Positions 20,901 to 23,000 of a stretch of DNA of 64,000 nucleotides are shown piece by piece. Under the pieces are notes generated by a model that did not search any database, was not told where the DNA came from, and worked only from the letters and a program-made list of their open reading frames with translations. Position 1 is the first letter of the stretch. Each line of letters starts with the position of its first letter. This DNA comes from Eledone cirrhosa. Lineage: Eukaryota. Both the position numbers and the translations under genes were made by a program. The stretch lies in assembly GCA_964016885.1 (NCBI GenBank), contig OZ024741.1, positions 290,222,001 through 290,286,000 of the forward strand, in the 5' to 3' direction.

Positions 20901-21440
20901 TCTAGTAGTTGTTGTATATATATATATATATATATATATATATATATATATATATATATAAAACATGGGAAGAAAGAGGAAAACTGCGTGGTTGCACATG
21001 GGTTACATATTATAAAATTAGTCCCTCATCAGTGATTTGCCAACCATCATTGGTATTTCATCGCATTATATATATATATATATATATTGTCTGTGTGTTT
21101 ACATACAGAATAGCTGGCCACTCACAGTAAAGTGATCAGTGAAAAAAAACTTGGTACATCTACATATGTATACGTGTGTGTATTCATATACATACTAGTA
21201 TTTCAGTATACATATATGGATGTACATCTTTGACTTAATTGTTTGAGCGTCAGTCATACAAAAGTGAGTTACAAACGAAACGAAATTTAATTTCGTTTCG
21301 TTATTTGTTTTTATCGTCTCCGTTGAACCGGTACTTACTCACACTCTATGCAAGTTGGTCTGCCCACTACTAATTTTCATAGAAAAAGCATATAGCGATA
21401 TGTGCTTTTACGATTCTCTAGAGAGGCCGGAAGATAGGTA

Positions 21441-21485
21441 AATATTGCTGATGAGTTGTAACAACAACGAAACTAGTTCAATATT
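21441..21485 (+). ncRNA. Minimal type I hammerhead ribozyme, copy 1
   Basis: AATATTG-CTGATGA-GTTG taacaa CAAC-GAAA-C TA-GTT^CAATATT: 7-bp stem I, 4-bp stem II, palindromic stem III ACTAGT; cleavage predicted after 21478. Confidence 0.9.
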
Positions 21486-21909
21486 CCTTGTCTGGCTTTC
21501 TAGAGAATAGAGGAAAGGTGTTTCCTCAAAAACCAGTATGACTCTAAAAACCGGTTTGTCTGTGTGTTTACATACAGAATAGCTGGCCACTCACAGTAAA
21601 GTGATCAGTGAAAAAAAACTTGGTACATCTACATATGTATACGTGTGTGTATTCATATACATACTAGTATTTCAGTATACATATATGGATGTACATCTTT
21701 GACTTAATTGTTTGAGCGTCAGTCATACAAAAGTGAGTTACAAACGAAACGAAATTTAATTTCGTTTCGTTATTTGTTTTTATCGTCTCCGTTGAACCGG
21801 TACTTACTCACACTCTATGCAAGTTGGTCTGCCCACTACTAATTTTCATAGAAAAAGCATATAGCGATATGTGCTTTTACGATTCTCTAGAGAGGCCGGA
21901 AGATAGGTA

Positions 21910-21954
21910 AATATTGCTGATGAGTTGTAACAACAACGAAACTAGTTCAATATT
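21910..21954 (+). ncRNA. Minimal type I hammerhead ribozyme, copy 2
   Basis: Identical to copy 1; cleavage predicted after 21947. Confidence 0.9.
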
Positions 21955-23000
21955 CCTTGTCTGGCTTTCTGGAGAATAGAGGAAAGGTGTTTCCTCAAAA
22001 ACCAGTATGACTCTAAAAACCGGTTTGTCTGTGTGTTTACATACAGAATAGCTGGCCACTCACAGTAAAGTGATCAGTGAAAAAAAAAACTTGGTACATC
22101 TACATATGTATACGTGTGTGTATTCATATACATACTAGTATTTCAGTATACATATATGGATGTACATCTTTGACTTAATTATATATATATATATATATAT
22201 ATATATATATATGTGTGTATATATATATATATATATATATATATATATATATATATATATATATATATATATATATGTATATATATATATATATATATAT
22301 ATATATATATATATATATATATATATATATATAGAAAGGATGAATATAAAATGAAAGTGCTTTTTTTAAAAAAGGAATTTATTAGGTATTGACATATGTT
22401 TCTGTAACAGACTGAATACCTATGTATCGCTGCTTGCGTAATCATATAATGTTAGCAAGTATTCGATAGCAAATGTATAATCAGTTGTCACATCTTCAGA
22501 GATTTTGGATAAATTGGATAAAATCAGAAAAATTGAAGTATTTATATTAGTAATAGAGGAAGAAACAGAGGGGATAGTATATGACAGATGGTAAATTAAT
22601 TTACTGCTAAACAAGTATATAATGGGTTTCTAATGAGAATACCATGAGTAAATCTAAATAAGAATTTTGGGAGTGCCAATTTTAATCTCTACTTGACCAA
22701 CTGGACAGTGGACAGGACTGGTCATTTGGTGCAGTAGTATTAATTATAAAGTGTCAATTGGGGAAGGGGGAGATTTCGATTGCTACTAAATAACATCAAT
22801 GCTAGAAGCCAGCTGGTATATGCATTAGGGAATTGAATCAAGAAATCAGAAATCTCATTTTATCTATAGCAGTTTGTATTAAAAGGTAAATAATAGAAGA
22901 GTTGATAGAATTAAGACTAATAAAGAATGTTAATATCTATTTTGACAATCAAACGGGGATAGAGACAGGCGTTCAATTGCATTATTGATAACCTGAAATT

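Follow-up and report, generated by a model that had tools for sequence, protein, structure and literature searches.

The 64,000-nt stretch of the Eledone cirrhosa genome analysed here (contig OZ024741.1, positions 290,222,001 to 290,286,000; hereafter the window) contains a short tandem array of a retrozyme with a 469-nt unit. Insertions of this retrozyme family end at two fixed sites within the unit, A and B, and two-armed insertions in which both ends can be read carry one end of each kind. Copies end at these sites likely because a Penelope-type enzyme primes both cut strands of the target on one RNA circle. Taken alone, Penelope-type priming at two sites is very probable; that a Penelope-type reverse transcriptase (RT)–endonuclease does so while rolling round a single predicted 469-nt RNA circle appears fairly probable. 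The element is a dispersed, non-coding retrozyme without long terminal repeats (non-LTR), i.e. of a known kind. Its class and monomer size are unsurprising, and the paired-end anatomy of its insertions is the new part.

Two fixed ends, one of each per two-armed insertion

An exact 26-mer of one end junction occurs 1,913 times in the genome (G000, 3.0 Gb; control 0), and a genome search returned 462 candidates, 35 of them scored, with near-identical arrays on many contigs. Altogether 122 loci were examined: the 35 score-picked ones, 56 collected via the B-end pattern (in listing order on contig C1, skipping loci already included) and 31 via the A-end pattern, plus four extension stretches. The sample of ~120 insertions, against at least 1,900, thus represents less than one tenth of the family. 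L099 and L100 gave no end call, and one spurious row from a diverged sister family was removed from the end tally.

Among the score-picked insertions, whose flanks are microsatellite or AT-rich DNA, 58 of 60 arm ends map to site A (29) or site B (29); the remaining two correspond to an assembly gap and a fragment of 26 nt. With the monomer numbered from m1 = 21479, site A ends fall mostly at m230-235 (three BLAST ends lie at 218, 226 and 248) and site B ends at m305, once at 308. In the RNA sense A is upstream of B, the two bounding a ‘tail’ of 70-75 nt. Both fixed ends are 3' ends in that sense, whereas 5' ends vary and are scattered over the unit; a pile-up of 5' ends at the cleavage site, looked for in the examined insertions, was not seen. 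The sequence-only reading had taken the window array to end mid-unit, as after rolling copying of a circle, and had expected a genome search to find dispersed arrays with permuted starts. Dispersal and spread 5' ends, including that of the window array, bear this out, but 3' ends are not random and lie at two fixed sites, which in the window is site A.

Two-armed insertions (25 of the 35 score-picked, 88 across all sets) are head to head in every case. Both ends can be read in 81 of them and are A plus B throughout, with neither A plus A nor B plus B among these 81; in the other seven, one end falls on a gap or locus edge or is replaced by unrelated DNA. Because L211 and L212 are one duplicated region, the independent A plus B cases number 80, for which an independent 50:50 choice of ends gives a probability of 2^-80. 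Arms reach 30.5 units, and in 41 of the 80 insertions both arms exceed one unit. The window copy is a single A arm. Eight of 34 apparent single-arm copies, read by eye, retain a stub of 9-20 nt of the opposite class.

Forty arm–arm junctions could be measured exactly: 16 contain inserts, three are blunt and 21 overlap by 1-4 nt, i.e. 21 of the 24 insert-free ones. Target duplications cannot be read inside (TA)n; in the three readable cases (L033, L052, L062) they measure 12-13 bp, and 2-3 nt of microhomology is found at B. In five further loci (L043, L048, L065, L103, L066) the flanks carry a short motif repeated in tandem, plus (TA)n, with a site-B stub in L103, as if priming had aborted and restarted or the target duplication had been copied repeatedly.

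The array and its unit

Features of the window array are collected in table 1. As first described, about 2.3 near-identical non-coding units lie within (TA)n: TRF reports period 469 with 2.3 copies and 99% matches, and the longest ATG-initiated open reading frame (ORF) of the unit has 23 amino acids, with no ORF for an RT plus GIY-YIG endonuclease found in the unit. Repeats 1 and 2 differ at one base (21502 versus 21971), and the third repeat has two additional A. The single substitution, at 21502, turns a stem with m403-412 into a perfect inverted repeat; separately, m24-27 is a place of repeated mutation in other arrays. Folded as a circle, the monomer reaches -152.3 kcal/mol (z = -11 versus 60 shuffles).

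Table 1. Features of the retrozyme array in the window
Feature	Position	Strand	Remarks
Retrozyme array, single arm, 2.33 units	21087..22180	+	variable 5' end m78; fixed 3' end at site A (m231)
Left (TA)n target	21067..21086	.	
Right (TA)n target	22181..22333	.	
Monomer, cleavage site to cleavage site, 469 nt (predicted circle)	21479..21947	+	release and circularisation predicted
Type I hammerhead 1	21430..21501	+	core CUGAUGA 21448-21454; palindromic helix III ACUAGU; predicted cut after 21478
Type I hammerhead 2	21899..21970	+	core CUGAUGA starts 21917; predicted cut after 21947
Site A, U-rich, putative priming site 1	21707..21713 (m229-235)	+	right end of window array, 22180, is site A of unit 3
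Perfect 13-bp hairpin in the tail between A and B	21743..21771 (m265-293)	+	putative protein-binding role
Site B, putative priming site 2	21772..21783 (ends m305)	+	internal in window array, terminal in other copies

Tandem units that each carry a type I hammerhead, a GC content of 0.35 (i.e. below 50%), the lack of coding capacity, the many loci and a monomer of a few hundred nucleotides are the features of a retrozyme. The claim of a young family holds, since the dispersed non-coding copies include a very young subfamily, and the 1,913 junction matches dispose of a single-locus repeat. Identity among subfamilies ranges from ~85 to 100%. Parts of the unit also occur, near-identical in sequence, in 20 sequencing runs (X1-X20) under 17 organism labels, with tandem-joined contigs of low depth (~10-20) in X4, X5 and X6 that match subfamilies also found in the E. 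cirrhosa assembly; related species, contamination or transfer could alike be the reason.

A second, diverged retrozyme family (L157:8079-10000, L141:2700-3264, L158:2900-3524; also L070, L093, L094, L230 and L235) is homologous via hammerhead and tail and has a unit of 483-511 bp with a variable (TA)n run. This run suggests that the AT-rich hairpin at m140-220 of the window family is a captured target microsatellite.

The hammerhead motif

Rfam Hammerhead_HH9 matches both motifs at E 3.4e-7, its 37.7 bits falling short of the gathering score (52); Rfam microRNA matches in the window were discarded as simple-repeat noise. The two GUU sites end at 21478 and 21947, which confirms that the predicted sites lie exactly one monomer apart and would excise 469 nt. 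The sequence-only reading had seen a textbook minimal type I hammerhead. Type I, the CUGAUGA core, the GUU site and a 7-bp helix I (AAUAUUG/CAAUAUU) are all there, but ‘minimal’ does not apply: in PMC4209133 the minimal form has a helix II of 7-8 bp, a helix I of 4-5 bp and an extra base after position 9, whereas here helix II has 4-5 bp and no additional base follows A9. The layout is thus that of canonical metazoan type I motifs. Helix III consists of two pairs and is palindromic, a form said to require a dimer (PMC4209133).

Covariation was assessed in 17 hand-picked variants from the window family and its diverged sister family, using a structure of 22 pairs. Pairing is kept in 96.5% of the cells of this structure, against 36-46% in slid controls, and 10 pairs, in helix I, helix II and an outer stem spanning the cut site, are changed on both sides. 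Since most of these compensatory changes separate the window family from the sister family, they represent few events. One helix II swap lies inside the window family: 516 copies have one form, and the two most frequent swapped forms together account for 113. The scan, which collected intact cores only, showed U, C or A at position 17 in 649 of 653 copies. The support for ribozyme activity is this covariation, and self-cleavage is predicted.

Two side observations concern the diversity of the motif: the helix III palindrome varies by family (ACUAGU, ACCGGU, AGUACU and ACGCGU among L147, L150, L050 and the window), and one hammerhead family has U3/A8 in place of C3/G8.

Haplotypes and the nature of the template

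The two arms of an insertion differ from each other at 0-3 sites in 66 of 71 rows, whereas other arrays lie at a median distance of 1-50. In 26 of the 71 rows no foreign arm is as close as the partner arm, a test that has no power for the 17 arrays of the commonest haplotype. Genomic units carry ~0.5 singleton variants each, and in 12 of 58 eligible arrays a variant that is private, i.e. absent from the ~120 sampled insertions out of at least 1,900, is carried by all units of both arms, in up to 20 copies. Joins between units are exact in length in 601 of 602 cases. Haplotype sharing, private variants and exact joins together favour a monomer circle as the putative template. Pure dimer-circle templates were considered and rejected: the period-2 patterns of L040 and L058 decay along the arm, and only L051 fits.

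Penelope-like elements of the same genome

Insertions of Penelope-like elements often consist of an element with an inverted 5' copy and a tail of 30-40 bp at one end, and some clades favour (TA)n targets (PMC8557442). The retrozyme shows the same signature, i.e. A plus B in 80 of 80 cases, an inverted 5'-truncated copy and AT-rich or microsatellite targets. In vitro, purified Poseidon protein, a predicted dimer, nicks and extends both strands and starts at two internal sites that bound the tail (PMC11167929).

Many elements encoding RT plus GIY-YIG are present in this genome, with a CxxxxCxxC linker like that of Neptune and Nematis (PMC8557442); the named relatives of one such protein are mostly bivalve. 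A natural open frame of ~1,025 amino acids, counted from its first Met, is present in L149. In two-armed coding copies a short end is paired with a long one in 9 of 9 cases in one family (tail ~68 nt) and in 4 of 4 in another (tail ~39 nt), and a third coding family adds one clear and one unclear case. The rule also holds in 9 of 9 cases for a further hammerhead-bearing Penelope-type family (L237-L252, tail ~96 nt), in which 9 of 16 loci are two-armed, two of these likely being duplicates. This abundant family, located with a search pattern devised in this analysis, shares a 12-nt motif with retrozyme site A (youngest allele only) and is a lead to a candidate partner. Upstream of one of its copies, L247, lies a decayed Penelope-like ORF, with three ORFs ~30% like Penelope-like proteins in tblastn and no Pfam match for any of the four L247 ORFs.

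Short two-armed derivatives of one coding Penelope-like family (L050, L068, L079, L208, L231) form a separate group. Their arms often share a near-identical 5' start, as if both had run off one linear RNA end. Elsewhere in the window, a hammerhead-like motif followed by a (TA)n run at 59560-59660 (-) is probably the end of a Penelope-like element.

A proposed mechanism for paired insertion, and alternatives

In what follows the DNA anatomy is the observed part, and every RNA and protein step is inferred. Array transcripts would self-cleave, probably as hammerhead dimers formed via the ACUAGU palindrome, and cleaved units would be ligated to 469-nt monomer circles, as may be supposed together with PMC7229834, which favours ligation by RtcB. 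A Penelope-like protein, probably as a dimer, would bind the tail and nick AT-rich DNA on both strands 12-13 nt apart. One target 3' end would then prime at B with 2-3 nt of microhomology and the other at A, 70-75 nt upstream, and both RTs would circle the template with strand displacement, up to many turns. Finally, the two cDNAs would be joined head to head at microhomologies of 1-4 nt or with short inserts. Abortion of one arm would leave a single-arm copy like that in the window, and long arrays may be edited afterwards by DNA-level block duplication. Penelope RT as the mobiliser and a monomer circle as the source had already been proposed in the sequence-only reading, and the junctions and haplotypes now lend support to both.

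A number of points weigh against this mechanism. RNA, cleavage and circle are predictions from the DNA, and 50 GIY-YIG loci, out of 10,596 candidates, yielded no coding element homologous to the unit in DNA; retrozyme DNA in these loci was limited to copies inserted nearby. In other systems, eight of nine Xenopus retrozyme dimers failed to cleave in vitro (bioRxiv 2026.07.22.740005), and the Anolis element (Poseidon) inserted in vitro without needing its hammerhead (PMC11167929). Our definition of ‘private’ is bounded by the sample, and since this is less than one tenth of the family, unsampled source arrays are possible. In L217, the unit copied first in each arm, and no other unit, has two variants, a pattern in keeping with a multimer template, and in L044, L046 and L052 arm-shared variants are present in only some units. 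The B arm of L095 consists of five units of an older subfamily followed, after a 22-nt deletion (m252-273), by the young haplotype of the A arm; with arms from two haplotypes and a switch inside one arm, two templates can therefore serve one event, and the two subfamilies were likely active at the same time. Long arrays are also amplified at the DNA level, as indicated by partial sweeps and period-6 repeats in J069 and L223.

The strongest alternative, to which we give a modest probability well below that of the circle, keeps Penelope-type two-site priming but places it on an uncleaved linear multimer transcribed from an existing array, with circles being rare or a by-product. It would accommodate L217 and the dispensable hammerhead of Anolis Poseidon; exact unit joins are compatible with it too, and a two-pair helix III is expected to cleave poorly as a monomer (PMC4209133). 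However, source units carry ~0.5 singletons each, and linear daughters should therefore often share mosaic variants in both arms at matching offsets. L217 alone of 80 arrays passes unit-specific variants to both arms in this way, as against the 12 of 58 arrays with whole-array private variants. Moreover, linear copying with 5' truncation cannot lengthen arrays.

Less probable still is that short Penelope-type insertions were later expanded and homogenised in DNA, by unequal crossing-over and gene conversion between inverted arms, the RT never having rolled. J069, L223, L040 and L234 contain block duplications and partial sweeps of the sort that such a process would leave. Yet near-identical young arrays already have 10-33 units, homogenisation is incomplete where it is visible, and older arrays retain 1-6 differences between arms, L095 even a 14-site difference.

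Very improbable is a nicked circle, i.e. a cleaved linear monomer with its ends held by helix I, on which the RT jumps from 5' end to 3' end at each turn. Helix I and the outer stem do bridge the cut site, and L095 does contain a template switch. End-to-end jumps by non-LTR RTs, however, usually leave indels, and 601 of 602 joins are exact in length; nor do 5' ends pile up at the cut site.

It is hardly credible that a coding Penelope-like element supplied the unit as its tandem pseudo-LTR: tail, inversion and hammerhead are indeed those of such elements, and a Penelope-like ORF remnant lies in sense in the 5' flanks of two of 31 single-arm copies (L039, L233), but these remnants are separated or decayed rather than fused to the unit, 5' breakpoints are scattered across the whole unit, the few similar pairs of 5' flanks resemble each other via common host repeats or partner-arm stubs and not a shared element body, and the 50 GIY-YIG loci sampled gave no sign of such homology, in agreement with what the sequence-only reading had favoured. 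Both remnants had been considered as fusions and rejected: in L233 a TA run and an opposite-class stub lie between remnant and unit, and the L039 remnant, ~85% similar to its family, is interrupted by the insertion of another repeat.

Comparison with known systems

Mobilisation by a Penelope-like RT and tandem cDNA from circles have already been proposed for metazoan non-LTR retrozymes (Cervera and de la Pena 2020, PMC7229834; Li, Clavereau and Pollet, bioRxiv 2026.07.22.740005). The E. cirrhosa family resembles these in its low-GC, non-coding tandem units with one type I hammerhead each, its dispersal and its target duplications (>4 bp there, 12-13 bp here). The monomer, first placed at or above the upper size range, slightly exceeds the 150-450 bp given in PMC7229834 but lies within the preprint's consensus range of 51-972 bp. 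The published work shows the circles and derives the mobiliser from co-occurrence and pseudo-LTR similarity, whereas in our family the junction evidence is strong and the RNA is predicted. Fixed 3' ends, inverted arms and the one-of-each rule do not appear in the accessible portions of either paper, and the words ‘inverted’ and ‘rolling’ have 0 occurrences in the main text of PMC7229834. A literature search, which covered listings and the papers cited here, returned no account of retrozymes with fixed paired ends or inverted arms, of Penelope-like elements that use twin priming, or of hammerheads in octopuses; Penelope reviews from 2005-2006 and supplements, which lay outside its scope, may detail the one-ended tail.

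With Penelope-like insertions (Craig et al. 2021, PMC8557442; Frangieh et al. 2024, PMC11167929) the family shares the often one-ended tail, the inverted 5'-truncated copy and the (TA)n bias. Two internal RT starts bounding the tail, with both strands nicked and extended, were seen in vitro (PMC11167929) and would be the equivalent of A and B here. The retrozyme differs by lacking an ORF and by its multimeric arms of up to 30 units. Its tail of 70-75 nt compares with 30-40 bp in the literature (PMC8557442) and with ~39, 68 and 96 nt in the Penelope-like families of the same genome. Strict A plus B pairing could be counted in the retrozyme, whereas the in vitro study saw no start-site difference between strands (PMC11167929). 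The satellite hammerheads of newt and axolotl (PMC7229834, PMC4209133) are likewise canonical type I with a palindromic helix III of 1-2 bp that needs a dimer, but our family has a larger monomer, an invertebrate-like repeat context and mostly two-armed dispersed insertions.

The retrozyme can also be set beside twin priming of L1, from which it differs in that both priming sites are fixed and internal and that its arms overlap in the template, repeating it many times. In L1 twin priming, both target strands prime on one RNA, the products are joined head to head with microhomology and the target is duplicated, which is the likeness to the retrozyme.

Other features of the window

The remainder of the window contains remnants of LINE-type RTs (RVT_1, zf-RVT) and a DDE transposase at 19685-21025 (-), 557-4064 (-), 4931-5806 (+) and 17856-18908 (-). 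No host gene was recognised in the window.

Significance

Overall, the many near-unmutated insertions of this family tie a retrozyme to Penelope-type integration at the level of single bases, and they supply a countable rule for any model, i.e. one A and one B end and one haplotype per insertion. The origin of the tail and of the tandem and inverted structures of Penelope-like elements has been stated as open (PMC8557442). We tentatively suggest, as a possibility with somewhat less than an even chance, that a Penelope-type dimer holds one 469-nt circle while both RTs write mirror-image arms, and that the rule of one short and one long end reflects a general integration mechanism of endonuclease-bearing Penelope-like elements, which would explain tail and inversions in one step. 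The family also offers a template that is small and defined, start sites mapped at two positions, a stagger of 12-13 nt and, in the same genome, a Penelope-like ORF that is long and open, so that it becomes possible to test directly whether a genomic circular RNA is reverse-transcribed in a rolling manner.
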